A stretch of 64,000 bases of DNA, from assembly GCA_013426755.1 (NCBI GenBank), contig AP019861.1, positions 1,254,270 through 1,318,269 on the forward strand, given 5' to 3'. The notes beneath the pieces were generated by a model. The model saw only the letters and a list, made by a program, of their open reading frames with translations, did not search any database and was not told where the DNA came from. A program made the translations under genes and the position numbers. The DNA comes from Spirochaetota bacterium. Lineage in GTDB: Bacteria; Spirochaetota; UBA12135; COTS27. Numbering within the stretch: the stretch's first letter is position 1; each line of letters begins with the position of its first letter. Of the stretch, positions 34,565-64,000 are shown in pieces.

Positions 34565-34574
34565 TTCATATTAC

Positions 34575-42385: not shown

Positions 42386-44041
42386 TTATAAATTCTTGAA
42401 AAATTTCTGTTGTTTTTTTAGCCTCTTTTTAACTTCTTCTAGCATTGCGATAATCTTGTCTGCTTCTGCTTTGGGGTATTCTTCTATTTCAGCCCCAGGA
42501 GGAATAGGAGTATTATTAGGTTCACCTAAGTTTTCTTCTAGTATTTCTTCGACTCTGTTCATTCTCTCTTTAAAATTGTTAATATCATTATAATTTATAC
42601 CAGTTAATACCTTCTCGATCTCTGTTCTACAACTCTTAAAGTTCTTTAAATTATCTGCTTTTACACCTCCACTAAATATAACATCTTTGAGATCAGCTTT
42701 TTTACCTGATCTATTCTTTAATCTATCAACTGCAAGTTCTAAATTTGTTTTTGGTGGTATATGTATAGATATATTGGGATCAGCATAGGCTCCATTAAAA
42801 TTAATGACTGCAAACTCATCAGACTGAAGTTGAAGTTGAGCTTTATATAAGTTAGTCGCTTGAAATCGAGCCGTCATTAAATTTGCTCCTTGAAACTGAG
42901 CATAACTTAAATCAGCTCCTTGAAAATCAGCACAACTTAAATCAGCCCCTTGAAGCTGAGCTTCTCTTAAATTAGCCCCTTGAAGTTGAACTCCATTTGA
43001 AAGAATAATTTGAGGCTGTTTTTTTTCTGAATCAGTCGTTTGAAGAAACCCTAATCGAGCCCCTTGGAGATGGGATTTTCTTAAATTAGCACCTTGGAGA
43101 TGGGACTCTCTTAAATTAGCCCCTTGAAGTTGGGCTTCTTCTAAATTAGCCCCTTGAAGATAAGCTGATTGTAAAGTAGCCGCTTGAAGCTGGGCTTTCT
43201 CTAACTTAGCCTCTTGAAGTTGAGCATAATCTAAATTAGCCTCTTGAAGATATGCATGATTTAAATTAGTCCCTTGAAGCTGGGCATTCCATAAATAAGC
43301 CTCTTGAAGTTGGGCAGAACCTAATTTAGCACCTTGAAGCCAAGCTTGCCTTAAATTAGCTCCTTGAAGTTGGGCTTTTTCTAAATTAGCTCCGTTAAGA
43401 TGCGCATTTGCTAGGTTTATCCAGTGACTCTTAAAAGGAAAGTCCTTATTATTCTCTTTATTTGTTAGAAGATCGAGAATGCTCTGCACCTCGTCAGAGG
43501 GTTTAGTTTTATATCTTTCAGAGTAACTTTCTTTGTCAAAAATAGGTCCCACAGTAGTCGCAAGGTCCTTTTGCCTGTTAAAAATAGGTTTCTCACTGGT
43601 CGTAATGCCTCTTATGTGGACACAGAGCACATTGCAGATGTTTACACGACGGTCTTCATTATCTCTGGCTAGATAATACAGTCCGTAAGCTCCTGCTAGA
43701 CGAACACTTGAATTTTCATTTCCAAATTGTGTGATTGCATTTTTATAGCGGTCCTCGATGTTTCCTTGATCTAACGCTCTTACTCGCTCAAGGGCAGCCA
43801 CCGCAACCAATGATGCTATCACACCACCGATCGCATATCCTAAACGTACTATGAGTACTCCAGGATTGCAGAGTTGATTAGTTTCTGTAATGCCTAAATT
43901 TTTGATAAAACAAGGGCGGCAGTACTCCCCAGAAAGATTGGCAACTAAAAGTCCGATAAGAAATAAAAGTACAACAATGACGAGACATTTAACCCAGTTT
44001 TTTTTAAACCAGTTTTTAAAAGATTTTACATTCATAGCCAT
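42386..44041 (-). CDS. Membrane-anchored pentapeptide-repeat protein (PRP family member 1)
   Basis: 551 aa with two hydrophobic helices. The conserved N-domain is QGNIEDRYKNAITQFGNENSSVRLAGAYGLYYLARDN..RR.NIC.VLCVHIR..TTS ... KPSDEVQSILDLLTNKENNKDFPFKSHWINLANAHL. About 200 aa of A(N/D)LxxAQLQG pentapeptide repeats follow. The conserved C-domain is IFSGGV...YPKAEADKIIAMLEEVKK. Confidence 0.85.
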   Translation of the reverse strand: MAMNVKSFKNWFKKNWVKCLVIVVLLFLIGLLVANLSGEYCRPCFIKNLGITETNQLCNPGVLIVRLGYAIGGVIASLVAVAALERVRALDQGNIEDRYKNAITQFGNENSSVRLAGAYGLYYLARDNEDRRVNICNVLCVHIRGITTSEKPIFNRQKDLATTVGPIFDKESYSERYKTKPSDEVQSILDLLTNKENNKDFPFKSHWINLANAHLNGANLEKAQLQGANLRQAWLQGAKLGSAQLQEAYLWNAQLQGTNLNHAYLQEANLDYAQLQEAKLEKAQLQAATLQSAYLQGANLEEAQLQGANLRESHLQGANLRKSHLQGARLGFLQTTDSEKKQPQIILSNGVQLQGANLREAQLQGADLSCADFQGADLSYAQFQGANLMTARFQATNLYKAQLQLQSDEFAVINFNGAYADPNISIHIPPKTNLELAVDRLKNRSGKKADLKDVIFSGGVKADNLKNFKSCRTEIEKVLTGINYNDINNFKERMNRVEEILEENLGEPNNTPIPPGAEIEEYPKAEADKIIAMLEEVKKRLKKQQKFFKNL

Positions 44042-44107
44042 AGAACACGAGTAGAATATTAAAGAATTATACTCTGCTTGAGTTACTCTTCGTAACGGTA
44101 TTAGTTA

Positions 44108-45646
44108 TTAGCCCCAGTAGTATTGTCTTATTTCTATTTCTATTAGCTGTTTATTTAATTCTTCTAGCATTGCGATAATCTTGTCTGCTTCTGCTTTGGG
44201 GTAGATTCCTGTTATAGCGCCAGAAGGAATAGAATTGTCTTCGGGTTTACTTAAGTTGTCTTCTAGTATTTTTTCGACTTTATTCATTTTCAGTTCAAAG
44301 TGGTTAATTCTAACTTGATTATAGTTTTTTATCTTATCCAACTCGTCCAATGTTGTTGCTGTTGTTTTCTTAAAATCGTCTAATTCATATTTTCTTACTC
44401 CTCCACTGAAGATCGCATTTTGAATGTCGTCTTTTTGATTTCTTTTATCTTTTAATTTTTTAATCGCCGCATCAATATTAAAATCTGTATTATACTTCTG
44501 TTCAGTAAAAGCTCCTCTAAAATCAGTTTTTATTAAATCAGCCCCCTGAAACTGGGCAGAACTTAAATTGGTCATTTGAAGTCCGGCAGAACTTAAATTA
44601 GCCCCTTGAAGTTGGGCTCCTCTTAAACTAGCCCCTTGAAGTTGAGCTTCTCTTAAATTAGCCCCTTGAAGTTGGGTTAAATTTAAATCAGCCCCCTGAA
44701 ACTGGGCAGAACTTAAATCAGCCTCTTGAAGATGAGCATAACTTAAATTGGCTCCTTGAAACTGGGCATATTTTATCTCAGCATTTTGAAGCTGGGCAAG
44801 CCTTAAAACAGCCCCTTGAAGCTGGGCAGACCCTAAAACAGCACCTTGAAACTGGGACAAACTTAAATGAGCCCCTTGAAGCTGGGCTTGATATAAACTA
44901 GCCCTTTGAAGCCGGGCATTCCATAAATTAGCTCCTTGAAGTTGGGCTTTCCATAAATTAGCCCCGTTAAGATAGGCACTTGCTAGGTTTATCCAGTGAC
45001 TCTTAAAAGGAAAGTCTTTCTTGTTTTCTTTGTTTACCAGAAGATCGAGAATGCTCTGTATCTCGTTAGATGGTTTGGTTGCATATTTTTCAGAGTATTT
45101 TATTTCTTTACCATCACTATTTTTACCGACGGCAACTTCGCTAGTTGTAAGTTCTCTTATGTGGACACAGAGTACGTCACAGATATTTTCGCGACGGTCT
45201 TTATTATCTTTCGCTAGATGATACAGTCCGTAAGCGCCTGCTAGACGAATACTTGGATCTTCTTTTCCAAACTGTTCGATCGCGTTTTTATAACGGTCTT
45301 CGATGTTTCCTCTCTCCTGTGCTTTGGCGGTTTCATCTAAAGCTCGTGCTCGCTTAGCACCAGCCATCGCAACAAATAACGCTATCACACCGCCGATCGC
45401 ATACCCTAACCGTACTATGAGTGTTCCAATTTCACAATCTCCATTAGTTTTTCCTAAGGCAGGAGGCCAGCAGTACTCCCAAGAAAGACTAACCATTAAT
45501 AATATAAAGAGAGATAAGAATATAAAAATTATAACAGTTGTAGTTATTGTAGTTGTATAGGGATGTTCATAGTATTCCTGTAATTTACGTAAGCATGACG
45601 TTATTGTCTTACGTAAGAATGATGGTGTTTTTTTTATTGGCTTCAT
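44108..45646 (-). CDS. Membrane-anchored pentapeptide-repeat protein (PRP family member 2)
   Basis: 512 aa with the same architecture as member 1. It shares a ~45-nt string, identical by eye, with member 1 near the 3' end (ttcttctagcattgcgataatcttgtctgcttctgctttggggta). Its ATG (45644-45646) is 2 nt from the glyQS stop codon. Confidence 0.85.
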   Translation of the reverse strand: MKPIKKTPSFLRKTITSCLRKLQEYYEHPYTTTITTTVIIFIFLSLFILLMVSLSWEYCWPPALGKTNGDCEIGTLIVRLGYAIGGVIALFVAMAGAKRARALDETAKAQERGNIEDRYKNAIEQFGKEDPSIRLAGAYGLYHLAKDNKDRRENICDVLCVHIRELTTSEVAVGKNSDGKEIKYSEKYATKPSNEIQSILDLLVNKENKKDFPFKSHWINLASAYLNGANLWKAQLQGANLWNARLQRASLYQAQLQGAHLSLSQFQGAVLGSAQLQGAVLRLAQLQNAEIKYAQFQGANLSYAHLQEADLSSAQFQGADLNLTQLQGANLREAQLQGASLRGAQLQGANLSSAGLQMTNLSSAQFQGADLIKTDFRGAFTEQKYNTDFNIDAAIKKLKDKRNQKDDIQNAIFSGGVRKYELDDFKKTTATTLDELDKIKNYNQVRINHFELKMNKVEKILEDNLSKPEDNSIPSGAITGIYPKAEADKIIAMLEELNKQLIEIEIRQYYWG

Positions 45647-45648
45647 GG

Positions 45649-48600
45649 TTAAGAAAATTGATGCCAGTCGAGGAATTGATCTAATTGAGATTTAATATGA
45701 TCAAGTAAGGTTAGCCGATTGACCTTTAAAGATTGATTCTTATCGTTAACCATAACATTATCAAAAAACTTAGAAGTGCGCTGTTCATAATTGCCAAAAA
45801 GTTCTAAAATGTCATTGAAGGATTTATGAGACGCTTCGTCAGGATTTTTTGATTGTAGAGCCGACCGCTGCAGAAGTGATTGGACCTCCTGGTAATACGC
45901 AAACAGATCGTATTCCGCCCCTTCACCGAGGAGAGTTTCATTGATAGCCAGCCCGAGACCTATACCAACGTCGGTGATTGTCTTTTTTTCACGGGTAAGG
46001 ATATGAGAGATGCGTTTATGGACGGTTAGGATTGCAAGCCATTTTACAGGGCTTTTATTTCTAAAATCAATGATACATCTTAATAAATTAAAAGAATGTA
46101 GCGGATTCCAATCGCAATCGGTCAGAACAGATTTGAGTAATTCAGAAAAAGTCTCGTCCATTGATGGCGGGATTTTTTTAGATTTAAGGTATTCTTTCTT
46201 TAAAGCATTGGGAAGTCGGCTATTGAGGAGGGAGAGCAATTCTTTAAAGAGCTGGTTAGCATTGAGTTTTTTAGGGTGATGTTTCAGATAGGGCTCGTAG
46301 AGGTAGGGATTGGCTGTCCAGAATTTTTTAAACGAGAACGAAGGCCTATAACACTCAGAATCCCCCGTACTAGCATTCTTAACCCAGATGCCACCAAGCA
46401 GTAAATCGGCAATTTCAATGACCGCACGTCTAATCCCCTTAGGGTCTTTACTCCCAGTTACCGGTATACCCACCGCAAAAAGCGGGATAAGGTGCGTCAA
46501 CCGATCCGCTAACGCAAAGAAATAACGAAGCATTGCATCCTGCTCTGGCAGCTCAGAAAGCAACCGATTCGGAGCGACGTATTGGTATTTGATCGCATCT
46601 GTAATTGGGTCTATCTGGTCAGGTTTGAGATTATTCGCATTGTTATGACGCAGGGCATAATCTGTATAGTAAGAACCGATAACACCCTGGAGATGGGGGA
46701 ATTCAGCGACCATTTGTGACGCAATGTCAATCTTAGCGTAGTCACAGAGCGTGGAAATTGTATTGGAATCTGGAATTGAAGCGTAGCCATGGGGTGAATA
46801 GTTTTCGATTAGAGTTTTGAGTACCTGGCGCAGTAGTGAAACCTTGTCTTGGTAAGAGCCGATTCCTTCGTAGTAGGTGATCGTTTGAAGTTTATGGGTC
46901 CTATAAAAAGCTAGGTTTTTAAGATCATTCTCATAGAAGAAGAGACCGTCACGAAGCCGCGCCGTCAAGACTCGCTCATTGCCTGTTTTAACGGTATCAT
47001 TGCTTTCTTTGATATTGCTAGTGATGATAAAGCGAGGAAGTAATTTCTGCGTTTTACGGTCACGGATAGGAAAATATTTCTGGTGTTCGACCAATTCACT
47101 AACAATCACCTCTTCAGGTAAGGTTAGAAATTGTTCTGCAAACTCACCAATGATAATGATTGGGTATTCGATCAATTGCGTTACGACGGGTAATAATTTA
47201 TGGTAGGCTACAAATTCCCAGTCATTGCGTTCGCTTAACCTCGTAAGTTCCGCTTCGATCATGGATTGTCGCTTCATTCTATCAGCAATAACGTAGTGAT
47301 CTGCCAAAATATCTTCCCAATGATTAGGGTTATTGATAGAAATTGATTGTCCTGCGAAGTCATTGCGAATAGTTGTGTTATTTTTATCAGAACCAGGAGT
47401 TAACCACCGATGACCGCGAGTTATCGGTGCATTGGTAATACCCGCGTAGCTGAACTCAATAGGATCATTGTTTAGTAGAATAAGAATATAGGTGATTGGG
47501 CGGATGAATACTTTTTCTGTTTCATCGGACGTGCCCCAGCGCATTGTCTCGCCTAAATTGGACTTTTTAAGCGGCAATTTTTCAAAAATCTGTTGGATTG
47601 CATGTTCAATTGGTTTCAATAATGCTTCATGGGGTGGATTGTTATTGGATTGTTCCAATTGACATAGAAATGCTAGTCTACGCGGCGTACTGAATGCCTT
47701 AGCATTCGAGCAAGTTAATGCATGGTTAACCAATGTTTGCGTGCAGAGTGTATGGAAATTGATTTCAGTTTTCTCAAGTGTTTCATGCGGAAGTTCTTCA
47801 ACGCCAATCTCAATGAGCAGAGAGTTTTTTCGAGCTGGATCGACATTGCGGGGATTGGGTGGAATTGCTGGTGGTGAGAGAGTTTTTGCTGGCTGCGGAG
47901 GGGTTGCATTGAATTTTTCAGAGAACGTCTTGATGTATTTTGTAAGCGGGAAACCAGCGGCTTTGCGTTCACTCAGATAATTTTCAGCAACTTGCTTTGC
48001 CAGGGTGCGGATTCTAGCGATGTACGTATCACGCTCAATAGCAGAAATTGCCGAACGTGCATCGAGGAGATTGAAGAGGTGCGAACACTTGATAACAAGA
48101 TCGTAACTTGGTAGGGCACTGGTTGTTATTGAATCGGTAGGTGAATCTTTTTTATGGGTATGCTGCTGTTTGTCATTGAAATGATGAGCAAGTAGTTCTT
48201 TTGCTTCATTTTCATAGAGAGTGAACAATTGCATAAGCCTTTTTACAGAAGCAAGTTCAAAATTGTACTTCGAGTGCGCCTGTTCATTATGAAGGTAAAT
48301 ATCACCATAAGTAAGGTGATCATTGAATCGAATGTCATAAACCGAGTCAACGCCTTGCAGAAATAACGCCAATCGCTCGAGCCCATAGGTGATCTCACCT
48401 GTCACAAGCGGAACGTCAATGCTAGCAACTTGTTGAAAATAGGTGATTTGTGAGACTTCCATTCCACTAAGCCAGACTTCCCAACCCAGACCTTTTGCCC
48501 CTAAAGTTGGGGATTGCCAATCGTCATGCACAAGCCGTACGTCGTGTTTATGCCCATTTATACCGAGCATTGCTAGGCTTTTGAAATATAATGTGAGAAA

Positions 48601-48885
48601 TTGCCGTGGTACCGGTTTCAGTATAACCTGATATTGAAAGTACCGTTGCAGCCGATTGGGATTTTCTCCATAACGCCCATCCGTCGGTCTTCTAGAAAGT
48701 TGCGTATAGGCAGCACAGTAAGGCTCTGGCCCTAACGAGCGAATAAACGTAGCAGGATGAAATGTTCCCGCCCCCACTTCGCCATCGTAACTGTGGTGTA
48801 GCACACACCCTTGTTCTTTCCAGAAATCATTTAACTTTAAGATAATATCTTGAAACGTGAGCATAGAAAATTCACCGCCAAACAA
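45649..48885 (-). CDS. glyQS: Glycine--tRNA ligase, fused alpha and beta subunits (GlyQS)
   Basis: The alpha-subunit part is [19 protein letters not shown] ... [25 protein letters not shown] ... [33 protein letters not shown] Pro-rich linker follows ([19 protein letters not shown]). The beta subunit then begins [11 protein letters not shown]. The track start at 48885 is TTG, and the ATG at 48864 (MLTFQDII) is the likelier start. Confidence 0.9.
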
Positions 48886-48921
48886 TAAGAAGAATTGTTA
48901 GAATTGCTAAAATTGTTCTCC

Positions 48922-48951
48922 TAGGACGTGCTCAATTCAATTCACGTCCTA
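48922..48951 (-). terminator. Hairpin between accA and glyQS (putative terminator or attenuator)
   Basis: A perfect 9-bp stem pairs taggacgtg (48922-48930) with cacgtccta (48943-48951), with a 12-nt loop. It lies 80 nt downstream of the accA stop. On the transcript it is followed by gagaacaattttagc, which is only weakly U-rich. Confidence 0.35.
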
Positions 48952-49030
48952 AGTCAATACCCCACAGAACCACAACAAAAAAACAACTCACATAGCCAAT
49001 ACAGACCACTATCCACACACGTACACCGTG

Positions 49031-50029
49031 TTAAGAAGCTTTGTTAAGAATGCCAATATTAGCAAATTTCTCAATCCGATGTGAAATAAGCTTTTCTGGT
49101 GCATAAGTAGAAAATACACCCAGACTCTTGGATAACGCCGCCTTAATATGCGAACTAGTCATAGTAAGACCGCGATGTGCCCCACCCGGCGCTTCTTTAA
49201 TGATTTCATCGACAACTTTAAGGCTTTTGCCCGTAAACGCATCATTTTTAAGCGCCATTGCCGCGTCACGTTTGTACCCTTCGTCCTTCCATAATATAGC
49301 CGCACAAGACTCAGGCGATATCACCGAATAGATAGAATTCTCTAACATCATCAGATGATTGCAGACCGACAAAGCAAGCGCACCACCACTCCCGCCTTCG
49401 CCAATCACAACAGACACAATAGGAACACGCAATGTAAACATTTCTTGCAAGTTCTTAGCAATAGCCTCAGCCTGCCCACGCTCCTCAGCCCCAATCCCAG
49501 GATACGCCCCCGGCGTATCAATAAACGTAACAATAGGCTTATTGAATTTATCAGCCAAACGAAACAATTTTAACGCCTTCCGATAACCCTCTGGGTGCGG
49601 CATACCAAAATTACGCTTAATATTCTCTTCCGTAGACCTCCCCTTCTGCTGCCCAACAATAACCACACTCCGCCCCTCCAATGAAGCAATCCCTCCAATA
49701 ACAGACCGATCATCACCAAAAAGCCGATCCCCCGAAAACTCTTGAAAATCATCAAAAATATGACTCAAGTAATCCAATGTATACGGACGCTGCGGGTGCC
49801 GTGCCACTTGTGTACGCTGCCAATTGTCAAGCTTTTTGTAGAGCGACTTAGCTTTTGTTTGAAATTCCAGCTCAAACTCTTTCAGTTTTTCAAGGTCTTT
49901 ATCAGAAGCAGACTTTTTTTGCATAATTGCAGTCATTTTCTTATGCAAGAGACCCAAGTCTTTTTTTTCAAACTCTAACAGGTCAGGGAAACTTTCCGAA
50001 GTAACCGTTCCAGTATTCATGATTTTCAA
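49031..50029 (-). CDS. accA: Acetyl-CoA carboxylase carboxyltransferase alpha subunit
   Basis: 332 aa. ARHPQRPYTLDYLSHIFDDFQEFSGDR...RNFGMPHPEGYRKALKLFRLADKFNKPIVTFIDTPGAYPGIGAEERGQAEAIAKNL is nearly colinear with E. coli AccA. Confidence 0.95.
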   Translation of the reverse strand: MKIMNTGTVTSESFPDLLEFEKKDLGLLHKKMTAIMQKKSASDKDLEKLKEFELEFQTKAKSLYKKLDNWQRTQVARHPQRPYTLDYLSHIFDDFQEFSGDRLFGDDRSVIGGIASLEGRSVVIVGQQKGRSTEENIKRNFGMPHPEGYRKALKLFRLADKFNKPIVTFIDTPGAYPGIGAEERGQAEAIAKNLQEMFTLRVPIVSVVIGEGGSGGALALSVCNHLMMLENSIYSVISPESCAAILWKDEGYKRDAAMALKNDAFTGKSLKVVDEIIKEAPGGAHRGLTMTSSHIKAALSKSLGVFSTYAPEKLISHRIEKFANIGILNKAS

Positions 50030-50072
50030 TGCCCAAACAAAATTATAAAAGTATACTCAGAATTACACTCAA

Positions 50073-50200
50073 TTTCAATACATTTTCATTTAATTACCTG
50101 TGCTCTCGCTTTCAATACATTTTCATTGAACTACTTATGCTTTCAATACATTTTCATTTAATTACTTGTACTCTCGCTTTCAATACATTTTCATTTATAT
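50073..50200. repeat. Intergenic tandem repeat, 31-38-bp unit x4
   Basis: ttcaatacattttcatt occurs at 50073, 50111, 50142 and 50179. Confidence 0.85.
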
Positions 50201-50224
50201 TGCATTTATATCGCCTTCATTCAT

Positions 50225-50297
50225 ACAGTCAAATACAATCAAATAGAATCGAGTACCATCAAATAGAGTCAAATACAATCAAATACAGTCAAAGTAC
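50225..50297. repeat. 10-bp repeat x~7
   Basis: The units run aaatacaatc, aaatagaatc, gagtaccatc, aaatagagtc, aaatacaatc, aaatacagtc. Confidence 0.8.
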
Positions 50298-50310
50298 TAC
50301 TGTACAGTCT

Positions 50311-50404
50311 TCTCAATCATATTAAATCTCAATCATCTTAAATCTCAATCATTCTAAATCTCAATCATCTTAAATCTCAATCAGTCTAAATCTCAATCAT
50401 CTTA
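50311..50404. repeat. 16-bp repeat x~6
   Basis: The units are aaatctcaatcatctt, aaatctcaatcattct and aaatctcaatcagtct. Confidence 0.9.
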
Positions 50405-50434
50405 ATAATATTGTACTATCATCTTAAAAACTTA

Positions 50435-50535
50435 TTCACATATTATAATACATTCACATATTATAGCAGTTTATAATACATTCATATATTATAGCAGTTT
50501 ATAATATATTCACATATTACAGCAGTTTATAAGCC
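50435..50535. repeat. 28-bp repeat x~3.5
   Basis: The unit is attcacatattatagcagtttataatac. The first copy contains ttattcaca (50432-50440), which matches the DnaA-box consensus TTATNCACA. Confidence 0.85.
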
Positions 50536-50950
50536 TTACCACCCATTCTCCGCAGAGTTTTCGCAGAATTCTAAACAATAGTGTACTCTTAACAACTCAT
50601 ATCATAATCAAGTGCCCATAATCAATAGGCTATATATACAACATAAATCGTATAATTCATGAATATTGTAAACCAGTTAATCATAAAATTTGTTATTTTT
50701 ATCGGCACAAATTGTTATTTTTATCGACACAATATCAAAATTATAGGGGTTATGATGATATAATATACACATGCATTGAATATACACATGCATTGAGTAT
50801 ACAGACACATTGAATAGGCACACACATTTGAAATAACCCTAATTGCTATAAATAGCACAAAAATATCAAAAAGTATATAAAATATCAGGAATATATAACA
50901 TATATACAATATCAATTTTTACACACCATTATTAACAATTATTAATATCC

Positions 50951-51220
50951 AATCACATTGAATATCAATCACATTGAATATTAATCGCACTGAATATCAA
51001 TCACATTGAGTATTAATCGCACTGAATATTAATCGCATTGAATATTAATCACATTGAATATTAATCACATTGAATAATAATCGCATTGAATAATAATCGC
51101 ATTGAATAATAATCGCATTCAACATTGACATCACATTCAACATTGATATTACATTCAACATTGATATTAAATAGTAAGTAGTAAATAGTAAGTAATAATA
51201 ATAGTAAGTAATAATAATAT
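50951..51220. repeat. Composite arrays filling the 270 bp upstream of rpsU: 16-bp x~10, 18-bp x3, then agtaagta-type units
   Basis: The 16-bp unit aatcacattgaatatt / aatcgcattgaataat runs 50951-51116. The 18-bp unit attcaacattgatattac runs 51117-51170. The tract agtaagtagtaaatagtaagtaataataat... then runs up to the ATG at 51222. Confidence 0.9.
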
Positions 51221-51221
51221 T

Positions 51222-51443
51222 ATGGCAGTCGTATATATTAGAGAAAGTGAGAACATTGAGGGTTCTATCAGAAGATTTAAAAAAGAAGTCGATAAAGAGC
51301 GCATCATCAAAGAACTTAAAGAAAGACGCTTTTATAAAAAACCAGCGCTCGTTAAAAAAATTGAAGCCACACGCCTAGAAAAACGCATTCGTAGAAATAA
51401 GCGATTCACACGTTACATCATCAATCGCCGCCCCACTTACTGA
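51222..51443 (+). CDS. rpsU: 30S ribosomal protein S21
   Basis: 73 aa and basic. IRRFKKEVDKERIIKELKERRFYKKPA..KK matches the S21 pattern (ALRRFKR..EK.G...E.R.R.FYEKP). Confidence 0.9.
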   Translation: MAVVYIRESENIEGSIRRFKKEVDKERIIKELKERRFYKKPALVKKIEATRLEKRIRRNKRFTRYIINRRPTY

Positions 51444-51748
51444 TTGCTCCCCCCTAGCCTAGCCGCTTCTTGCCCCCTCCCAAGTGATCCTCACCCTCTC
51501 AGTAGTATCACTTATTCATTCATAATAAGACCTCTGCTCTTATGTGATATGGCTAGTAGATCAAATTGATTTCAACAATTGCAAATTGGATTTTCTATTC
51601 ATTATCGCCAGTGCTTATCATTATCGTATAACGTCTTATTCAATTGTTACCCATTCGATCTCAATCTTATCATTCAATTTTTACCATTCACTAATTCACA
51701 CATTCAATCTTATTATCCTATTATTTAATTATTTAGTACCGAGTACCT

Positions 51749-52282
51749 ATGAATCTATGGCATGACTTACCCTTAAGCAAAAAATTTCCTGCAGAATTTC
51801 CAGTCATCATTGAAATCTCTAAAGGCTCCAACGTCAAATACGAACTCCATAAAGATACAGGCCTCATCGCTGTCGATAGAATCCTTCACAGCGCTATGCA
51901 TTATCCTCTCAATTATGGCTTCACGCCACGTACCTATTGTAAAGATAATGACCCTATCGATGTTCTGCTAATGGGCGAATATGCCTTGATGCCAGGCTCA
52001 TTCATTCAAGCACGTGCCATTGGGTATATAGAAATGATTGACGACGGCGAAGAAGACCATAAACTTATTGCAATTCCAGTCAGCGATCCAGAACTCGCTC
52101 ACATTGACGACATCTCGAAAGTAAGCCCTCATCTCATTGAAAAAATTAAAAACTTCTTTGCCACCTACAAAATAATGCAGAAAAAAGACGTCGTCATCAA
52201 CAACCATTATTCACGCGAAAAGGCACTCGCACTTCTTACCACCGCCGCCGACAGCTATCTCAAAAAATTTCCCAACCACTAG
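51749..52282 (+). CDS. ppa: Inorganic pyrophosphatase (family I)
   Basis: 177 aa. The motifs VIIEISKGSNVKYELHKDTGLIAVDRIL, YPLNYGFTPRT, DNDPIDVLL and DHKLIAIPVSDP are the classic soluble PPase motifs. Confidence 0.95.
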   Translation: MNLWHDLPLSKKFPAEFPVIIEISKGSNVKYELHKDTGLIAVDRILHSAMHYPLNYGFTPRTYCKDNDPIDVLLMGEYALMPGSFIQARAIGYIEMIDDGEEDHKLIAIPVSDPELAHIDDISKVSPHLIEKIKNFFATYKIMQKKDVVINNHYSREKALALLTTAADSYLKKFPNH

Positions 52283-52320
52283 CCGCCCACCATCCCTAAA
52301 AAAATCTATGGTCGAATATT

Positions 52321-53940: not shown

Positions 53941-54024
53941 GACGATCTATTTAAGAAGTTATGAGTATTAAATAGAATTTAGAAACTACAATTTCATTCT
54001 CTGAAGAGAGTTGGTAATGGATTT

Positions 54025-57000
54025 ATGAAAATGAAAAACGGGCTTAAAAAGATTTGGCTTCCGATAAAGGAGTTCTTAAAGAAGTGGGATGTTATAGATT
54101 GGGTTGTAAGTTTCATATGTGCTGCAATTATCACACTTGAATTATTTCTTCTAACAAAACTAGAGATTTTACCCTTCATAATAGAGATTTTACCCTTCAT
54201 AAAGGAGTGGCCTTATATACACTGGATAGTTGGACTTATAGTTATTTTTCTATTAGTTCTTCTAACATTATTATTTATAAAACAGCGACTTCTTACAGAT
54301 TTGTATATATTATTATTCACATTTCTTATATTAATTGGGTTAGATATAGTTTTATCATTCTCAGAAGATTGGTCTCTTATATATAGGATAATTATTGTTA
54401 TTCTTATTATTTGGCTAGATATTATTTGGCTAGACTTTCTAAAAAACCATGCAGTATTATCCTTTATAAAACAGCGGCATCTTACAGATTGGGTTATAGT
54501 AATCACATTTTTTATATTAATTAATTTAGGTATAGTTTTATATAAAACTATTTATCACGATACAAACTATCAGAGTAAAAGTGCACAGAATGAAAAATGT
54601 CTGCCTGAAGTATTAGGAAATTTAGGAAAAACAAGCAACAATGTAATAAACGACAATAAAACAACAAAAGAAACAGTAGACAACGGTAAAACAAACAACA
54701 ATTCAACAAACAATGAAATAGAAAACTATAGCCAAATAACCAACAATTTACCAAAAAATAACGCAACAGAAGACAATGAATGTGGCAATATTGGAGTAGC
54801 CATAGAACGTTTAGGTTTCGCGATTGGTGGTGTCATAGCGTTATTAGTCGCACTGGCTAGTTTAAGACGAGTAAAAGCTTTAGATGATACCGCTGAGGCA
54901 CAGAATAAAATCGCCGAAGCAGAGGAACAAGGAAATATCGAAGACCGCTATAAAAATGCGATTGAACGGCTTGGAAACGATAAATCAAGTGTTCGTCTGG
55001 CAGGAGTTTATGGACTGTATTATCTAGCCAAAGATAACGATTTCCGTTGCGAAAATATCTGTGACGTGCTCTGTGTTTATATAAGAGATATTACGACTAG
55101 TAAAGAACCTATTTCTAAAAATCTCCCTAAAATTTACTCTGATATATATAAAAACAAACCATCTAACGATGTGCAGAGCATTCTCAATCTTCTAACAAAT
55201 AAAGATGAGGATAAAAATTTTCCTTTTAAGTCTCACTTGATAGACTTATCAAATGCTTATATCAACGGGACTAATTTATCACGAGCCCAGATGCAAGGAG
55301 CTGATCTAGAAGAGGTCGAACTTAATAAAGCTAATCTAGAAAATGCTAATCTTAACCCTTACGAAGATAAAACTAATTCAGAGGATGAAAAACAAAAGAC
55401 TAACTTAAAAAAAGCTAAACTTCAAAATGCTAATCTAAAAGACGCTGAGTTTAAAGAAGCTAATCTAGAAGGAGCTAACTTCAAAGAGGCTAATCTAGAA
55501 AGGGCTAACTTCAAAGGCGCTAATCTAGAAAAAGCCTACTTTAGCTGCATTCATAATTCTAAAAAAAAGACTAATTTAAATAACGCTATCCTTCAAGAAG
55601 CCAATCTAAAAGGTGCCAACCTTAGATATGCTACGTTAGATGATGCTAACTTTCAAGATGCTGAGTTAAACAAGAAATGTCTTAATAGCATTGATAAGGC
55701 TTATCTAAAAAAAGTTAATCTCAATAGTATTATTTTTACGGGTACGGATTTTAATAAAATTAATTTAACGGGCGCCCAGCTAACAAATGCCAATCTTAAA
55801 AAGGCTGAGTTAATGAAAGCCAATCTTCAAAGTACTAATCTAGAAAATGCAGAACTTCAAAGGGCTAATCTAGTAGAAGCCAACCTTAGCTCTAAACGCA
55901 AAAACAATCGAACTAATTTAAGTAATGCCAAATTTCAAGGAGCTATTCTAGAAAAAGCCAACTTTAAAGGTGCTATCTTAAATGGAGCTGAATTTCAAGG
56001 TGCTAAGTTAGATAAAAAATGTCTTGATAGCATTGATAAGGCTTATCTAAAAGATGTTAATCTTAGTGGTATTGTTTTTACGGGTATGAGTTTTAGGAAA
56101 ATTATTTTAAATAATGCCCAGCTACAAGAAGCTAACCTTCGGGGAGCTAATCTAGAAGAAGCCCAACTTAAAAATACTGTTCTTAAAAAAGCTAAACTTA
56201 ACCCTTACAAAAAAACTAATTCAAATAGCGAAAAAATTACTAACTTAAAGAAAGCCCAACTTCAGGGGGCTAATCTAGAAAAAGCCGAACTTAAAAAGGC
56301 TATTTTAGAAAGTGCCAACCTTGAAGATACTACCTTAAATGGAGCTAAATTTCGAGGTGCTAAATTAAATAGAAGATGTCTTAATAGTATTCTTAGAAGT
56401 AAAACTGCATCAATAGATATAAAAAAAGTTGATCTTAGTGGTATTGTTTTTACGGTCAAGAACTTTGATAAAATTAACTTAACAAACGCCCAGCTAAAAG
56501 ATGCTATTTTTATAGACAAAACTACATTTAAAGGAGCCACTTTAACAAATGTCGTTCTTGAAAATGCTACTTTAAAGACAGCCCAATTTCAAGGGGCTAA
56601 TCTAGAAAATGCAGAACTTCAATCGGCTAATCTAGAAAGTGCAAATCTTAACCCTTACAAAAAACAGAAGACTAATTTAGAAAATGCCAAACTTCAGGGA
56701 GCTATTCTTGAAGGTGCTATGCTAAAGGATGCCAATCTTAGAGGTGCTAATTTTGAAAAAGCTAACCTTAACCCTTACAAAAAGAGTAATCCAAAGGGGC
56801 AAAAACAAAAGAATAAAGCAATAAATACCCAACTTCAAGGTGCTAATCTAGAAGGTGCCAACCTTAAAGATGCTAATCTAGAAGGTGCCAACCTTAAGAA
56901 TACGACATTAGATAAAAAGGCTTTTGAGTCGCTTAAAAAAGCAAAATCCTTAAGGAATGCAAGTGTCATTGGAATGAAACTTATACCGAGTAGATTTAAT

Positions 57001-57156
57001 CAGATATTCAATATTGAGTCGCTTAAAAAAACAAAACTCATTGGAAAGCAGCCTATATCGAGTATATTTAATCAGATATTCAATAAAAATCCAATACCAC
57101 TAACACCAAAACAGAAAAATGAACTTAAAAAGAAATTTCCTGGTGTGATTTTATAG
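54025..57156 (+). CDS. Large polytopic pentapeptide-repeat protein (PRP family member 4)
   Basis: 1043 aa. The extended N-terminus has about 6 hydrophobic helices, including a duplicated FIKQR.LTD module. An N/T-rich linker and the family N-domain follow (QGNIEDRYKNAIERLGNDKSSVRLAGVYGLYYLAKDN ... KPSNDVQSILNLLTNK). Then come about 650 aa of Lys-rich pentapeptide repeats (ANLE.A.LK.ANL) interrupted by CL.SIDKAYLK..NLS.I.FTG modules. It lacks the family C-domain. Confidence 0.85.
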   Translation: MKMKNGLKKIWLPIKEFLKKWDVIDWVVSFICAAIITLELFLLTKLEILPFIIEILPFIKEWPYIHWIVGLIVIFLLVLLTLLFIKQRLLTDLYILLFTFLILIGLDIVLSFSEDWSLIYRIIIVILIIWLDIIWLDFLKNHAVLSFIKQRHLTDWVIVITFFILINLGIVLYKTIYHDTNYQSKSAQNEKCLPEVLGNLGKTSNNVINDNKTTKETVDNGKTNNNSTNNEIENYSQITNNLPKNNATEDNECGNIGVAIERLGFAIGGVIALLVALASLRRVKALDDTAEAQNKIAEAEEQGNIEDRYKNAIERLGNDKSSVRLAGVYGLYYLAKDNDFRCENICDVLCVYIRDITTSKEPISKNLPKIYSDIYKNKPSNDVQSILNLLTNKDEDKNFPFKSHLIDLSNAYINGTNLSRAQMQGADLEEVELNKANLENANLNPYEDKTNSEDEKQKTNLKKAKLQNANLKDAEFKEANLEGANFKEANLERANFKGANLEKAYFSCIHNSKKKTNLNNAILQEANLKGANLRYATLDDANFQDAELNKKCLNSIDKAYLKKVNLNSIIFTGTDFNKINLTGAQLTNANLKKAELMKANLQSTNLENAELQRANLVEANLSSKRKNNRTNLSNAKFQGAILEKANFKGAILNGAEFQGAKLDKKCLDSIDKAYLKDVNLSGIVFTGMSFRKIILNNAQLQEANLRGANLEEAQLKNTVLKKAKLNPYKKTNSNSEKITNLKKAQLQGANLEKAELKKAILESANLEDTTLNGAKFRGAKLNRRCLNSILRSKTASIDIKKVDLSGIVFTVKNFDKINLTNAQLKDAIFIDKTTFKGATLTNVVLENATLKTAQFQGANLENAELQSANLESANLNPYKKQKTNLENAKLQGAILEGAMLKDANLRGANFEKANLNPYKKSNPKGQKQKNKAINTQLQGANLEGANLKDANLEGANLKNTTLDKKAFESLKKAKSLRNASVIGMKLIPSRFNQIFNIESLKKTKLIGKQPISSIFNQIFNKNPIPLTPKQKNELKKKFPGVIL

Positions 57157-58275: not shown

Positions 58276-58356
58276 TAGGCTAGCAGAAATAATATTGAGT
58301 TTTTAATTGAAACTTTTATTGAGTTTTTAAAAAATGCTTATAAATGATTGATAGCA

Positions 58357-58465
58357 TTTTCAAGGAATAACTGGATTTTCAAGGAATAACTAGATTCGCA
58401 GGGAATAACTAGATTTGCAGGGAATAACTGGATTTTCAAGGAGTAACTGGATTTGCAGGGAATCA
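58357..58465. repeat. 19-bp tandem repeat x~6 abutting or overlapping the stop codon of the ThiF-family gene
   Basis: The units are ttttcaaggaataactgga, ttcgcagggaataactaga and tttgcagggaataactgga. The last unit contains the stop (tca at 58463-58465). Confidence 0.9.
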
Positions 58466-59434: not shown

Positions 59435-59516
59435 CCGTCAAATATATCGTATCTTTATTAGAATAAGATTGAAATCAATCTAAATCAATCTAAATTGATC
59501 TAATCGTTTTAAAAAT

Positions 59517-59969: not shown

Positions 59970-60140
59970 AAGGTTCTCGTTTTCACTTGAAAATCTTAAT
60001 TGTTCTCACAATGATACCACATTTAACTCTCAATTGAAAATCTTAATTGCTCTTACAATTATATCACGTCTAACCTAGCTGGAATAAAAGTTTTTATGGA
60101 ATTTCAAGCTAAATCGAATCAATCTCATTGAAATATTGTA

Positions 60141-60200
60141 AATTATCTAAAATTATCTAAAATTATCTAAAATTATCTAAAATTATTTGAAATTATTTGA
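60141..60200. repeat. 10-bp tandem repeat x6 overlapping the stop codon of the TPR gene
   Basis: aattatctaa occurs four times, then aattatttga twice. The TAA stop (60193-60195) and the last codons lie inside the final units. Confidence 0.9.
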
Positions 60201-62484: not shown

Positions 62485-62614
62485 TTTAGCATTGATTTTT
62501 TGGGCACCGTGTTATCAGTCATTTCGGCTACTTTTGAGGGCAGAATGTTAGAGTTAATATTATCGGAGTATTACCAGTCAAAAGTCAATCCTCTTCCTGC
62601 TAATTAGATTTTTT

Positions 62615-63949
62615 TTATGCGGATAGATCATTGATTATCCTTTTTAGGTCTTCGATAACCTTATCGGCGTCTGCTTTGGGGTAGATTCCTGTTATAACTT
62701 TATTAGAAGGAATAAAAGTGTTAGGAGGACCACTGTTTGTACTTAGTATGTTCTCGACTTTATCCATTTTCTTTCTAAAATTACTAATATCATTATATTT
62801 TATATCGGTTAATACATTCTCGATATCTGTTCTTTTTCTTCTAAAATTTGATATATCATCTGGTTTTACACCTCCACTAAATACAATATTATTATTTAAA
62901 TCAGTCGATTGACCTACTCTATTTTCTAATCTGGCAACTGCAAGTTCTAAATTTGTTTGTCCCGATATAGAAGTGGGAACAGTATAAGCTCCGCTAAAAT
63001 TGGTTTTATCAAACTTAGCTCCCTGAAACTGAGCTTTCGATAAATTAGCCCCTTGAAGCTGGGCATTACTTAAATTAGCCCCTTGAAGTTGGGCTCCTGT
63101 TAAATTAGCCCCTTGAAGCTGGGCATGAAATAACTTAGCTCCTTGAAACTGGACGCACGTCAAATCAGTTCCTTGAAACTGGACTTTATATAAATTAGCC
63201 GTTTGAAACTGAGTTCCTTGTAAATTAATCCCTTGAAGCTGGGCTTTCGGCAACTTAGACCCTTGAAGTTTGACTCCTGTTAAATTAGCTTCTTCGAACT
63301 GGGCATTTTCTAAATTAGTATTTTTTAGATTAGCCCTTTCAAGTTGTGCTTTTTCTAAATTAGCCCCTTGAAGCCGGGCATTTTCTAAATTAGCCCCTTG
63401 AAGTTGGGCTCCTTTTAAATTAGCATTATTAAGATTAGCACGCTGAAAATAAACGTTTGACAAGTCTAGCCATTTACTAGAAAAAGGAATTTCCTTTCCA
63501 TTCGGAATTTTCTCTGCATTCTTTTTTTCAATAAGAAGGTCTAAAATAAATTGTATTGTCGCTGGTGAAATATCACAATTCTGAACACGACTTTCTGTTT
63601 GAAGATAATTACAAAAAACTGTACAGATACGTTTTCTTTTATCATTTGATTGTTCTTCTAACGCCAATTCATATAGATTTTGAAAGCCAATTCGAACGAC
63701 TCCCTGTCTTTTACTTTCAATCTGGCTTATAGCATAGTTGTAACGCTGTTCAGTGTTACTCTTACGCTGTTCAGTGTTACTTTTTTCTTGTGCCTCTGCT
63801 ACTCTGTGCTGTTCTAACATAAGCATGAAACTAATTATAGCCGTTATAAATAATACAAATAATGTTGCGGTATTATTTAAATTAAATTCAAATACTAAAA
63901 CTCCAACTAAACCTCCAGCTATGCCCAGAAGGATAGGTACACTAAACAA
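62615..63949 (-). CDS. Membrane-anchored pentapeptide-repeat protein (PRP family member 5, divergent)
   Basis: 444 aa with two TM helices. The N-domain is diverged (EQRYNYAISQIES....VRIGFQNLYELA ... ICTVFCNYLQ ... TIQFILDLLIEKKN). Pentapeptide repeats (ANL..AQLQGANL) follow, then the family C-domain (VFSGGVKPDDISNF...YPKADADKVIEDLKRI). Confidence 0.85.
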   Translation of the reverse strand: MFSVPILLGIAGGLVGVLVFEFNLNNTATLFVLFITAIISFMLMLEQHRVAEAQEKSNTEQRKSNTEQRYNYAISQIESKRQGVVRIGFQNLYELALEEQSNDKRKRICTVFCNYLQTESRVQNCDISPATIQFILDLLIEKKNAEKIPNGKEIPFSSKWLDLSNVYFQRANLNNANLKGAQLQGANLENARLQGANLEKAQLERANLKNTNLENAQFEEANLTGVKLQGSKLPKAQLQGINLQGTQFQTANLYKVQFQGTDLTCVQFQGAKLFHAQLQGANLTGAQLQGANLSNAQLQGANLSKAQFQGAKFDKTNFSGAYTVPTSISGQTNLELAVARLENRVGQSTDLNNNIVFSGGVKPDDISNFRRKRTDIENVLTDIKYNDISNFRKKMDKVENILSTNSGPPNTFIPSNKVITGIYPKADADKVIEDLKRIINDLSA

Positions 63950-64000
63950 AATAATATTATAGACAATGGACGTATTATAACAATTATATAAATGCTCAAT

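Follow-up and report, generated by a model that had tools for sequence, protein, structure and literature searches.

Pentapeptide-repeat proteins are among the most abundant repeat proteins of bacteria, and outside the Qnr and MfpA group we know of almost none whose function has been established. DNA mimics of the Qnr/MfpA class are soluble dimers of ~200 aa that carry neither transmembrane (TM) anchors nor caps. HglK of Anabaena, in comparison, combines TM helices with C-terminal pentapeptide repeats and is associated with the membrane.

Such repeats also appear in systems of biological conflict. Bacterial NLR-like defence proteins use pentapeptide and HEAT repeats as sensor modules, and Orc/Cdc6 conflict ATPases exist as fusions with pentapeptide repeats. 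HalA, which serves the Hailong system as its membrane-anchored effector, forms a tetrameric channel gated by DNA and has a nucleotidyltransferase as its partner. Canonical Type III restriction-modification systems (EcoP15I-like) consist of two genes, Mod and Res, and the searchable literature yielded no account of a third component that is tethered to the membrane and carries pentapeptide repeats. Here we examine a cluster of membrane-anchored pentapeptide-repeat genes in COTS27, a subcuticular spirochaete that lives as an extracellular symbiont in crown-of-thorns starfish, and ask what their relatives elsewhere suggest about their role.

Five paralogues embedded in housekeeping operons

The window, by which we mean the whole stretch of 64,000 nucleotides that was analysed, holds five intact paralogues, m1-m5 (Table 1), which are each other's best matches; a six-frame HMM scan recovered exactly five family members and no fragments. 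All five open reading frames are found where the original prediction put them, and on the same strands, with the correction that m5 extends beyond the window end: ~17 N-terminal codons lie outside, and its start, judged by length, would fall near 64051, past base 64000. The annotated start of m4 may also differ, as its exact sequence was absent from the protein collection searched.

Table 1. Family genes of COTS27, their domains and neighbouring features (positions in the window)
Feature	Position	Strand	Length	Domains and remarks
Methyltransferase	22454-23335		293 aa	
m1 (COTS27_00813, BBM89120.1)	42386..44041	-	551 aa	Identical to database protein. Approximate domains: TM hairpin 43781-44011; N-cap 43397-43762; solenoid 42803-43396, ~10 turns; C-cap 42389-42802
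m2 (COTS27_00814, BBM89121.1)	44108..45646	-	512 aa	Approximate domains: TM hairpin 45353-45559; N-cap 44969-45307; solenoid 44525-44968, ~7.4 turns; C-cap 44111-44524
Housekeeping core between family pairs	45649..52282	mixed		glyQS, accA, rpsU, ppa
glyQS (fused)	45649-48885	-		
accA	49031-50029	-		
rpsU	51222-51443	+		
ppa	51749-52282	+		
m3 (COTS27_00819, BBM89126.1)	52321..53940	+	539 aa	Approximate domains: TM hairpin 52405-52656; N-cap 52696-53061; solenoid 53062-53505; C-cap 53506-53937
m4 (atypical member)	54025..57156	+	1043 aa	TM region 54088-54873; N-cap 54934-55263; solenoid 55264-57153, ~31 turns; without C-cap
m5 (COTS27_00825, BBM89132.1)	62615..64000 (runs past window end)	-	478 aa in full	Approximate domains: TM hairpin 63806-63976; N-cap 63446-63757; solenoid 63002-63445; C-cap 62618-63001

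The mirror orientation that had been noticed around glyQS-accA-rpsU-ppa is real, as the order and strands of the reading frames show: accA, glyQS, m2, m1 and ORF132 run leftwards, divergent from rpsU, ppa, m3 and m4, and the intergenic region between accA and rpsU is rich in repeats. The start of m2 lies directly behind the stop codon of glyQS, that of m3 38 nt past ppa, and no terminators were predicted between glyQS or ppa and the downstream family genes, which appear to be co-transcribed with them. Such an arrangement is unusual for defence genes and speaks against a defensive reading of the family. Third-position GC content (GC3) of the family genes (0.24-0.30, against 0.35-0.46 in neighbouring housekeeping genes) looks foreign. 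No Res homologue was found in the window and no Mod or Res beside any COTS27 family gene; the sole methyltransferase of the window is small, Type II-like and located ~19 kb from m1.

Patches of DNA identity between m1 and m2 had been taken as a sign of recent duplication or gene conversion. Exact shared tracts do occur (up to 45 nt), but overall nucleotide identity among the COTS27 copies is only 72-75%, and the duplications are therefore not recent. Short exact tracts, together with a mosaic of domain similarities in which m5 has the most divergent N-cap, yet a C-cap closest to that of m1 (53%), hint at recombination among copies. The five COTS27 copies are accessory genes embedded in housekeeping operons; they probably arrived by horizontal transfer, became inserted behind housekeeping genes and diversified thereafter.

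Domain architecture and membrane topology

All five proteins share the architecture that had been proposed for them, namely TM helices, a helical N-cap and a pentapeptide solenoid, with a C-cap in four. PF00805 matches each (122-324 bits against a cut-off of 20.2; E 4e-36 to 4e-99), with m1 reaching E 1.9e-54 against Pfam Pentapeptide. Two or more TM helices had been expected at the N-terminus, and hydropathy finds two in each protein but m4, which has about six or seven in a TM region that bears signs of internal repetition. TM2 carries a conserved small-residue motif, and the loop between TM1 and TM2 contains two or three cysteines in m1-m4.

An HMM of the N-cap built from diverse members matches all five window proteins (E 3e-38 to 4e-59), with the consensus ..ERLKNAIEHLG..SVRLGGAYELFHLA..ILCAHIR.TT...KPSEEIQSLL.LLF; the original prediction called its strings near-invariant, which is borne out within m1-m4 (64-80% identity) but not for m5 (40-44% to the others). 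The C-cap HMM, with the consensus ..IGK.SDLS.VIF.GGL...H.G.P.S..LP...GAITG.YT.EEAE.WI..Y, matches m1, m2, m3 and m5 (E 1e-54 to 1e-60) and gives no match in m4, in keeping with the four of five counted in the first reading of the sequence. When compared with Pfam and solved folds, N-cap and C-cap yielded no match bar one HEAT-like repeat in the N-cap, and the two domains are, as anticipated, without an annotated counterpart of known function. The solenoid surface is rich in Gln, Ala and Gly rather than acidic; its net charge, as a crude residue count and not a computed electrostatic surface, is -3 in m1, +2 in m2, -2 in m3, +6 in m5 and +41 in m4.

Residues 29-55 and 73-126 form helices in the AlphaFold2 model of m2 (pLDDT 90.1, pTM 0.75), in which the helical N-cap spans 131-203, the beta-solenoid ~216-385 and the helical C-cap 391-511. 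Single-residue strands recur every five residues across 216-385, the right-handed quadrilateral beta-helix fold, and Foldseek matches the model to pentapeptide crystal structures with E down to 3.5e-13. Exactly two hydrophobic peaks are present in 35 of 40 aligned full-length family members, and in these 35 Lys and Arg residues average 3.8 ahead of TM1 and 3.9 behind TM2, compared with 2.3 in the intervening loop, whose median length is 22 aa. Nothing resembling a cleavable signal peptide was noticed in the sequences, as judged without a dedicated predictor. The anchor is predicted to be an N-terminal hairpin of two TM helices in the inner membrane, and both termini, hence the whole rod, are predicted from hydropathy, flanking charge and the AlphaFold model to face the bacterial cytoplasm. 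TM2 runs on into a helical stalk, visible in the m2 model and variable in length across the family, which leads to the conserved N-cap. Beyond this lies the right-handed beta-solenoid of pentapeptide repeats, likewise variable in length, and at the far end the rod is usually capped by a helical C-cap that is itself variable.

A widespread and mobile family

The N-cap is not specific to the lineage, as a profile search recovered 5,462 protein clusters at E<=1e-3, with 520 at E<=1e-10; the five COTS27 genes are a lineage-specific paralogue cluster of a very large, widespread and uncharacterised family. The original suggestion that a similar module precedes pentapeptide repeats in many uncharacterised proteins is thereby confirmed, and extends to plasmids of Anabaena and Streptomyces, among 113 plasmid records carrying the family, all annotated merely as 'pentapeptide repeat-containing protein'. 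In an alignment of 40 full-length homologues, 36 of them from outside COTS27, the C-cap is conserved, and it is missing from many other family members. Integrases, the AbiEii toxin and HNH nucleases are neighbours of the plasmid-borne genes. Arrays of four to six diverged copies occur locally in five other loci (L113, L114, L115, L018 and L053), with N-cap identities of 54-91% within the first four, where they were measured. Distribution is patchy and copy number highly variable. The family behaves as an accessory one that moves horizontally, in arrays, on plasmids and next to defence genes. Its linkage to Type III operons, defence islands and plasmids, and the fact that multi-copy arrays are usual for it in other genomes, had no place in the original prediction.

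Linkage to Type III restriction-modification

Genomic neighbourhoods were compared across 78 related loci from species-representative genomes, the relatives kept being the 80 that best matched a query constructed from top hits. A Mod gene lies immediately downstream of the family gene in 32 of the 78, in 22 of these 32 with a gap of -1 nt, such that stop and start codons overlap, and 29 of the 78 contain the complete order of family gene, Mod and Res. The family gene therefore heads a Type III operon, translationally coupled to the gene behind it, in ~40% of sampled relatives. Mod matches PF01555 (1e-50) and, over its full length, the PADLOC model MTase_III (2.7e-190), and Res matches PF04851 and REase_III (8.3e-184). 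The same cassette is found in two sponge metagenome contigs (L083, L094), and in a broader metagenome sample in only 3 of ~12 contigs long enough for judgement. Elsewhere, methyltransferase genes alternate with family genes (L002) or a methyltransferase-HNH gene adjoins one (L001). Other neighbours include an HTH regulator, an HTH+Peptidase_M78 protein, PIN, the HEC-01A ATPase and a PDC-M23B/HamB-like helicase, and in two loci (L003, L004) they are ordinary metabolic genes.

Averaged over 24 cassettes, the N-cap shows 77% identity and the C-cap 51%, against 66% in Mod and 71% in Res, and the COTS27 paralogues follow the same gradient from a conserved N-cap to a variable C-cap. The linkage may be mostly traceable to one cassette spreading horizontally among symbionts of marine invertebrates, and the 32 linked loci are for that reason not to be counted as 32 independent events. 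Furthermore, sponge symbionts are generally rich in restriction-modification systems, which weakens guilt by association. PADLOC-DB v2 contains no credible match for the five window proteins or for a restriction-linked relative (L014).

A tentative role in defence and its alternatives

Since the family so often heads Type III restriction-modification operons in other bacteria, a part in defence against foreign DNA suggests itself. We put the chance that these proteins serve as membrane-tethered sensors or adaptors against invaders at a little below even. Besides the operon linkage, this reading draws on the other defence and mobile neighbours, the arrays elsewhere, the gradient from conserved N-cap to variable C-cap, the foreign-looking GC3 of the COTS27 genes and the precedent of pentapeptide and HEAT repeats as sensor modules. 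Tethered at the membrane, such a protein would act in the conflict with invading DNA, the membrane-proximal conserved N-cap and TM hairpin forming a constant output or docking end, and the solenoid with its variable distal C-cap a recognition end. This end would either bind invader components or keep the restriction complex at the membrane, the site of entry of foreign DNA, or regulate it there. The copies in COTS27 would then be 'solo' members that work by themselves, or in trans with a system whose genes lie elsewhere in the genome. Whether the mechanism is one of sensing, docking, regulation or membrane disruption we can only infer. The absence of an adjacent Mod or Res from the COTS27 members, the metabolic neighbours in L003 and L004 and the want of a PADLOC model for the family are observations that run against a defensive role.

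That many of the closest relatives found (among the best 80 matches) are symbionts of marine invertebrates from many phyla, and that COTS27 itself is a starfish symbiont, would suit a symbiosis or host-interaction factor: a repeat-containing 'eukaryote-like' protein exported by invertebrate symbionts, whose hydrophobic hairpin would insert in a host or outer membrane and whose solenoid would bind host proteins (cf. PipB2, NleL). Sponge origin is confirmed in the literature only for the Aplysina aerophoba assemblies MKWU/MPMZ, and for bins RHO3, IRC4, SB0661 and Entotheonella is deduced from record names. An enlarged set of paralogues that vary at their distal ends would be in line with diversification of host targets, and the pentapeptide regions do match PipB/PipB2 models, but at 62-84 bits against cut-offs of 274 and 354, and through repeats only. 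The taxonomic enrichment is itself biased because only the best matches to a query built from top hits were kept, the sequences show no signal-peptide-like feature, and translational coupling to Mod and Res and carriage on Streptomyces and Anabaena plasmids are hard to explain on this basis. Secreted effectors of intracellular bacteria had been raised as a parallel; COTS27 is extracellular and the predicted N-in/C-in topology keeps the solenoid in the bacterial cytoplasm, making an effector role unlikely and a host factor in the wider sense improbable. Slightly less improbable is a housekeeping protein of the envelope or of cell organisation, a membrane-anchored scaffold or ruler comparable to cyanobacterial HglK, which would serve envelope biogenesis or protein localisation and be expressed constitutively from housekeeping operons. 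Its appeal lies in COTS27 genes that follow glyQS and ppa directly, without a predicted terminator in between, in the metabolic neighbours of L003 and L004, and in a rigid, TM-anchored rod whose length varies, as would befit a spacer or scaffold. Patchiness and variable copy number, plasmid carriage, foreign-looking GC3, rapid divergence of the C-cap and tight restriction-modification linkage are all atypical of a core housekeeping function, which they disfavour.

Least probable of all, in our estimate, is a membrane-anchored DNA mimic, in which a solenoid resembling B-DNA would directly inhibit or buffer a DNA enzyme such as gyrase or the Res/Mod complex itself, for example by preventing self-restriction while a new system establishes. 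Foldseek sets the m2 solenoid near MfpA, Qnr, AlbG and EfsQnr, but also near neutral pentapeptide proteins, and the first-gene position, sometimes behind a small HTH regulator, recalls restriction-modification control elements. The original prediction had pointed to Qnr and MfpA, a lead supported neither by the solenoid charges, near zero in four members and strongly positive in m4, nor by the Qnr/MfpA NCBIfam scores of 30-68 bits against cut-offs of 240-500. Moreover, most family members, including all five here, lack an adjacent cognate enzyme gene, and proteins of 478-1043 aa with TM helices stand apart from a small, soluble and unanchored class.

Returning to defence, we hold more tentatively still, as possible though on balance doubtful, that the family is a previously unrecognised defence component, either a third subunit that tethers or regulates a widespread Type III class at the membrane, or a self-contained sensor-effector. 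In the latter form, the TM hairpin would be the output and the solenoid with C-cap the invader sensor, frequently travelling with restriction-modification systems and diversifying into multi-copy 'solo' arrays like the five of COTS27. The architecture covers thousands of protein clusters annotated merely as 'pentapeptide repeat-containing protein', for which linkage to Mod-Res operons offers a first testable functional context. If a membrane-tethered partner or sensor is indeed at work, classical restriction systems would gain a membrane-based, spatial element, and it would become easier to understand why repeat proteins have expanded in marine-invertebrate symbiont genomes, an expansion usually taken for host mimicry.

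Comparison with known systems

The closest structural relatives are HetL (3du1), Np275/276 (2j8k), Rfr23/Rfr32 and the designed Beta1 solenoids, which share the right-handed quadrilateral beta-solenoid of A(D/N)LXX repeats; Foldseek against solved pentapeptide proteins gives E 1e-11 to 1e-13 at 32-42% identity over the repeat region. These proteins are soluble and comprise little beyond the solenoid, whereas in the family studied here a TM hairpin and a stalk are present as well, together with helical N- and C-caps. Qnr, MfpA, AlbG and McbG likewise share the solenoid fold and a link to DNA enzymes, here through neighbouring genes, but have no TM anchor, no caps and a surface that is not neutral, whereas the COTS27 solenoid is near neutral or basic; with that near-neutral solenoid it is not an acidic mimic of the Qnr/MfpA type. 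In PipB and PipB2 of Salmonella the solenoid is a protein-binding module behind a different N-terminal region, and the scores given above fall short of membership. HglK is alike by description, in its membrane association and its solenoid, and differs in its N-terminal region. HalA resembles the family as a membrane-anchored defence effector with a cytoplasmic extension; it was absent among the 50 best matches listed for the m2 model in the fold search, and its NCBIfam model NF051894 matches m5 alone (E 6e-4), through repeat residues only, with 19 bits against a cut-off of 250.

With NLR-like/STAND sensors, whose repeats may be pentapeptide, HEAT, TPR or LRR, the family has in common superstructure-forming repeats, residence in defence islands and variable recognition ends, but it has no NTPase domain, leaving the TM hairpin as the only candidate output module. 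Finally, although the COTS27 genes stand beside neither of the two genes of a canonical Type III system, the family as a whole resembles such systems in the operon that it shares with Mod and Res in 29 of the 78 loci.

Five paralogues of a single architecture

Five ORFs (m1 to m5; see table) encode proteins in which a transmembrane (TM) hairpin and a helical N-cap precede a pentapeptide solenoid, which ends, except in m4, in a helical C-cap. The original prediction placed all five where ORF calling finds them, with the proviso that m5 is not wholly contained in the window: the gene runs past the window end, and the deposited protein has 478 residues. Every member matches Pfam Pentapeptide (E 4e-36 to 4e-99), with no other above-threshold match in Pfam, PADLOC or NCBIfam. 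A five-way alignment displays both of the N-terminal boxes that had been proposed and the C-terminal domain in four of the five (m1, m2, m3 and m5), while hydropathy bears out the N-terminal TM helices, of which m4 has roughly six or seven and each of these four has two. When all six reading frames of the window were translated and searched with N- and C-domain HMMs, exactly m1 to m5 were matched and no family fragments were found.

Coordinates of the family genes in the window and of segments in the structural model of m2
Feature	Position	Strand	Description
m1	42386-44041	-	ORF call; BBM89120, locus tag 00813
m2	44108-45646	-	ORF call; BBM89121, locus tag 00814
m3	52321-53940	+	ORF call; BBM89126, locus tag 00819
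m4	54025-57156	+	ORF call
m5	62615-63949 as first given; continues past window end	-	BBM89132, locus tag 00825
m2 model, N-terminal helix	start		amphipathic
m2 model, TM1	residues 29-55		followed by short loop
m2 model, TM2 and stalk	residues 73-126		54-residue helix
m2 model, N-cap	residues 131-203		helical
m2 model, solenoid	about 216-385		regular beta-solenoid
m2 model, C-cap			three long helices and a few strands

Exact protein look-up assigns m1, m2, m3 and m5 to 'Spirochaetota bacterium' COTS27. The genes lie on its chromosome of 2,684,921 bp, which encodes 1,650 proteins; there one group (accA, glyQS, m2, m1 and ORF132, in order of reading) diverges from another (rpsU, ppa, m3 and m4), and the earlier description of a mirror orientation around housekeeping genes is therefore correct. 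The start of m2 directly follows the glyQS stop, and that of m3 lies 38 nt 3' of ppa. Scans for promoters and terminators returned the same counts as in shuffled sequence. The glyQS gene itself (45649-48885) is a fusion of glyQ and glyS into a single glycine--tRNA ligase gene of about 1,071-1,078 aa.

Anatomy and topology

An AlphaFold2 model of m2, built from a 40-sequence alignment, is confident (pLDDT 90.1, pTM 0.75). A fold search with the whole model listed only pentapeptide solenoids among its 50 best matches, and the solenoid is an ordinary pentapeptide-repeat fold. In m1, m2, m3 and m5 it makes about 7.4-10 turns and is near-neutral (charge -3 to +6); in m4 it makes about 31 turns and carries a charge of +41.

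Neither cap is an annotated domain of known function, as had been anticipated: Pfam matches neither the C-cap nor, among 25 diverse members scanned individually, the N-cap. Compared with the PDB, the N-cap profile gave weak matches only, to HEAT-like repeats of both designed and natural proteins (alphaRep 5e-4, 2db0 0.013), through the segment 'AIEHLG..SVRLGG.YEL..LA'. For a separate model of the C-cap (pLDDT 91.5), structural searches yielded no neighbour, the best E being 0.83 in the PDB and 0.89 against viral models. An apparent likeness of the C-cap to polyubiquitin was dropped as spurious because a single 30-residue motif (..IFAG.QLED..) had been counted repeatedly and the C-cap model is helical.

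Across 35 two-TM members, mean K+R is 3.8 before TM1 and 3.9 after TM2 against 2.3 in the intervening loop, which has a median length of 22 aa and in m1 to m4 contains 2-3 cysteines. The basic residues flanking the hairpin favour an N-in/C-in topology, in which the whole rod would lie in the cytoplasm. The multi-TM N-terminus of m4 (54088-54873) appears to have arisen by internal duplication of the loop and TM2 unit, repeating the strings 'SFIKQR.LTD' and 'IIWLD' and containing, at 54161-54202, a perfect 21-nt repeat present twice. Duplicated hairpin units and 4-6 TM helices are also found in several distant homologues (P0054, P0004 and P0083).

A widespread accessory family

A word-indexed search with the m3 N-domain returned no matches, missing even the window paralogues, and a genome scan with COTS27-specific peptide patterns was also empty; an exhaustive profile search took the place of the former. 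Against 1.84 billion representative proteins, the profile of the five N-domains matched 5,462 with an E of at most 1e-3, 520 of them at 1e-10 or below; the only three under 1e-30 were the window's own proteins. Homologues share the entire architecture, including in many cases the C-cap, and the family stands in databases under a generic name only: Pfam has no model of either cap, and PADLOC none of the family. A literature search, weak evidence given its incomplete coverage, found no description of the architecture or of a Type III link, and the COTS27 paper mentions neither pentapeptide proteins nor the family.

The family behaves as an accessory, mobile component of genomes and forms arrays. 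With the N-cap as query, tblastn matched 113 plasmid records (94 from Streptomyces and one an Anabaena plasmid), in which any gene listed at the match was annotated 'pentapeptide repeat-containing protein' and neighbours included integrases, an AbiEii-type toxin, HTH regulators and HNH nucleases. A phage origin was considered and rejected, no relatives being found in phage genomes or viral contigs. Four loci elsewhere (L113, L114, L115 and L018) carry arrays free of restriction genes, with four to six members per 10-12 kb and N-cap identities of 54-91% within an array, and a fifth (L053) holds a shorter array; the clustering of five genes in 22 kb in COTS27 is thus typical of the family and not peculiar to one genome.

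Coupling to Type III restriction-modification

When one genome per species was scanned with a tighter alignment built from the mainstream subfamily and the 80 best matches were kept, 78 loci were recovered from Binatia, Nitrospirales, Latescibacterota, Gammaproteobacteria, Acidobacteria, Entotheonella and other lineages. Many carry the names of sponge-symbiont bins, and the source accessions MKWU and MPMZ were confirmed as the Aplysina aerophoba sponge microbiome, in which restriction-modification genes are enriched (PMC5649159). Calling ORFs in these loci and clustering the neighbour proteins revealed a protein of about 513 aa directly 3' of the family gene in 32 of the 78, followed in 29 by one of about 880 aa. 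The former is a Type III methyltransferase, Mod (PF01555, 1e-50; PADLOC MTase_III, 2.7e-190, full length), and the latter a Type III restriction subunit, Res (PF04851; PADLOC REase_III, 8.3e-184). In 22 loci the gap between family gene and Mod is -1 nt, an overlap of stop and start codons. A large subset of relatives is coupled to Mod and Res in an operon. The same cassette occurs on sponge metagenome contigs L083 and L094.

Cassettes (L014:2089-7712, L028, L064, L094 and 25 more loci) occur in genomes assembled from metagenomes and spanning many phyla; judging by bin names, many of these genomes apparently belong to sponge symbionts. In many loci, Mod and Res are separated by additional small ORFs or by about 550 nt. 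The cassette enzymes are 50-96% (Mod) and 60-93% (Res) identical across phyla, which suggests that the cassette has spread horizontally. A comparison of 24 complete cassettes ranks the family protein (mean identity 56.5%) below both Mod (66.2%) and Res (71.4%) in conservation. Within the family protein, the N-cap (77%) exceeds either enzyme and the C-cap (50.6%) is the most variable part, a gradient repeated among the COTS27 paralogues.

More distant relatives also adjoin methyltransferases: in L002 methyltransferase and family genes alternate, and in L001 the family gene has a methyltransferase-HNH gene and an AAA_21 ATPase nearby. In several loci the family gene adjoins Mod or Res fragments, suggesting one route to 'solo' copies. 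Recurrent neighbours comprise a small HTH regulator directly upstream, HTH+Peptidase_M78, PIN, a HEC-01A ATPase and a PDC-M23B/HamB-like helicase. The last is seen at L099:2537-5749 and in L103 as a 1,070-aa helical protein resembling Hachiman HamB, matched over its full length by the candidate-defence model PDC-M23B (E=0, 1407 bits) and encoded immediately upstream of a co-oriented family gene: a second defence-type partner, distinct from Mod-Res.

In COTS27 none of m1 to m5 adjoins Mod or Res, and the window holds no Res homologue. Its sole methyltransferase (22454-23335) is short and Type II-like. This 293-aa N6/N4 DNA methyltransferase, with a GC3 of 0.30 as low as that of the pentapeptide genes, belongs to a small defence-like patch (22454-26789), 16-20 kb away, in which it is followed by a 288-aa ORF of no family match, possibly its endonuclease; the opposite strand carries a DUF4411 (PIN-like) gene and a 517-aa Peptidase_M78/IrrE-like gene.

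Age of the paralogues and their surroundings

Recent duplication or gene conversion had been proposed for m1 and m2. DNA identity among the five amounts to just 72-75% across 0.8-1.1 kb, and m1 and m2 share no exact match longer than 45 nt, pointing instead to old paralogues with short conversion tracts at most. The N-domain of m1 is nearest those of m3 (80%) and m2 (77%) and its C-domain nearest that of m5 (53%), and this mosaic suggests recombination between copies. Since the COTS27 copies are each other's best matches, with the nearest outsiders 39-47% identical in the N-cap, the cluster is a lineage-specific expansion of a widespread family. The low GC3 of m1 to m5 (0.24-0.30 vs 0.35-0.46 in glyQS, accA, ppa and other flanking genes) is consistent with horizontal acquisition and subsequent insertion downstream of housekeeping genes.

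The surrounding sequence has further peculiarities. Intergenic regions, among them the accA-rpsU divergent region, are packed with non-coding tandem repeats (34563-36306, 40037-41892 and 50073-51169) for example of 16- to 110-nt units, a 14-nt unit x40 and a 45-nt unit x7 at 98% identity; a 143-aa 'ORF' (40272-40703) is the translation of one array, and according to the COTS27 paper the assembly has gaps at tandem repeats. Two neighbouring giant ORFs (178-8224; 1,063 and 1,563 aa) match Pfam through multiple GLUG motifs only. A 1,553-aa ORF (15042-19703) fuses a Kdo-transferase N-terminal domain (residues 557-683) to a C-terminal group-1 glycosyltransferase domain and is unusually large for a lipopolysaccharide-core enzyme. 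A ThiF/MoeB-like gene (58463-59434), overlapped by a 187-aa antisense ORF (58650-59213), has a low-complexity C-terminal insert encoded by a 30-nt tandem repeat (58664-58774, 'SSPPKSNF.DSSP').

A possible role in defence

Several explanations compete for these proteins, and a part in conflict with foreign DNA is better supported than the others. Secreted effectors came to mind from the occurrence of pentapeptide proteins in intracellular bacteria, and chlamydial Inc-like effectors in particular from the fused glyQS and the two-lobed hydrophobic hairpin; the genome, however, is that of the spirochaete COTS27, an extracellular symbiont and not an intracellular pathogen, and an effector directed at the host would conflict with the predicted cytoplasmic rod, the operon coupling to Mod-Res and the plasmid distribution. 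Mimicry of DNA after the fashion of Qnr and MfpA, the other lead of the original prediction, sits poorly with solenoids that are neutral or basic, sub-threshold Qnr/MfpA scores and a TM anchor; scores for the Qnr, MfpA, PipB, PipB2 and HalA families all fall far under their cut-offs. A housekeeping scaffold, which the positions beside glyQS and ppa might bring to mind, would hardly show such a patchy distribution, foreign composition and fast-evolving C-cap.

The reading we tentatively prefer, at slightly below an even chance, is that these proteins are sensors or adaptors, tethered to the membrane, that take part in conflict with foreign DNA. Their constant end would be formed by the TM hairpin and N-cap and a variable recognition end by the solenoid and C-cap; the protein might dock or regulate a restriction complex at the membrane, sense invader components or disturb the membrane upon triggering. 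Our confidence is held there because the restriction linkage may derive largely from one horizontally spreading cassette, because sponge symbionts are generally rich in restriction systems and because the COTS27 genes have no Mod or Res neighbour. Pentapeptide and HEAT repeats both have precedent as sensor modules in bacterial defence proteins.
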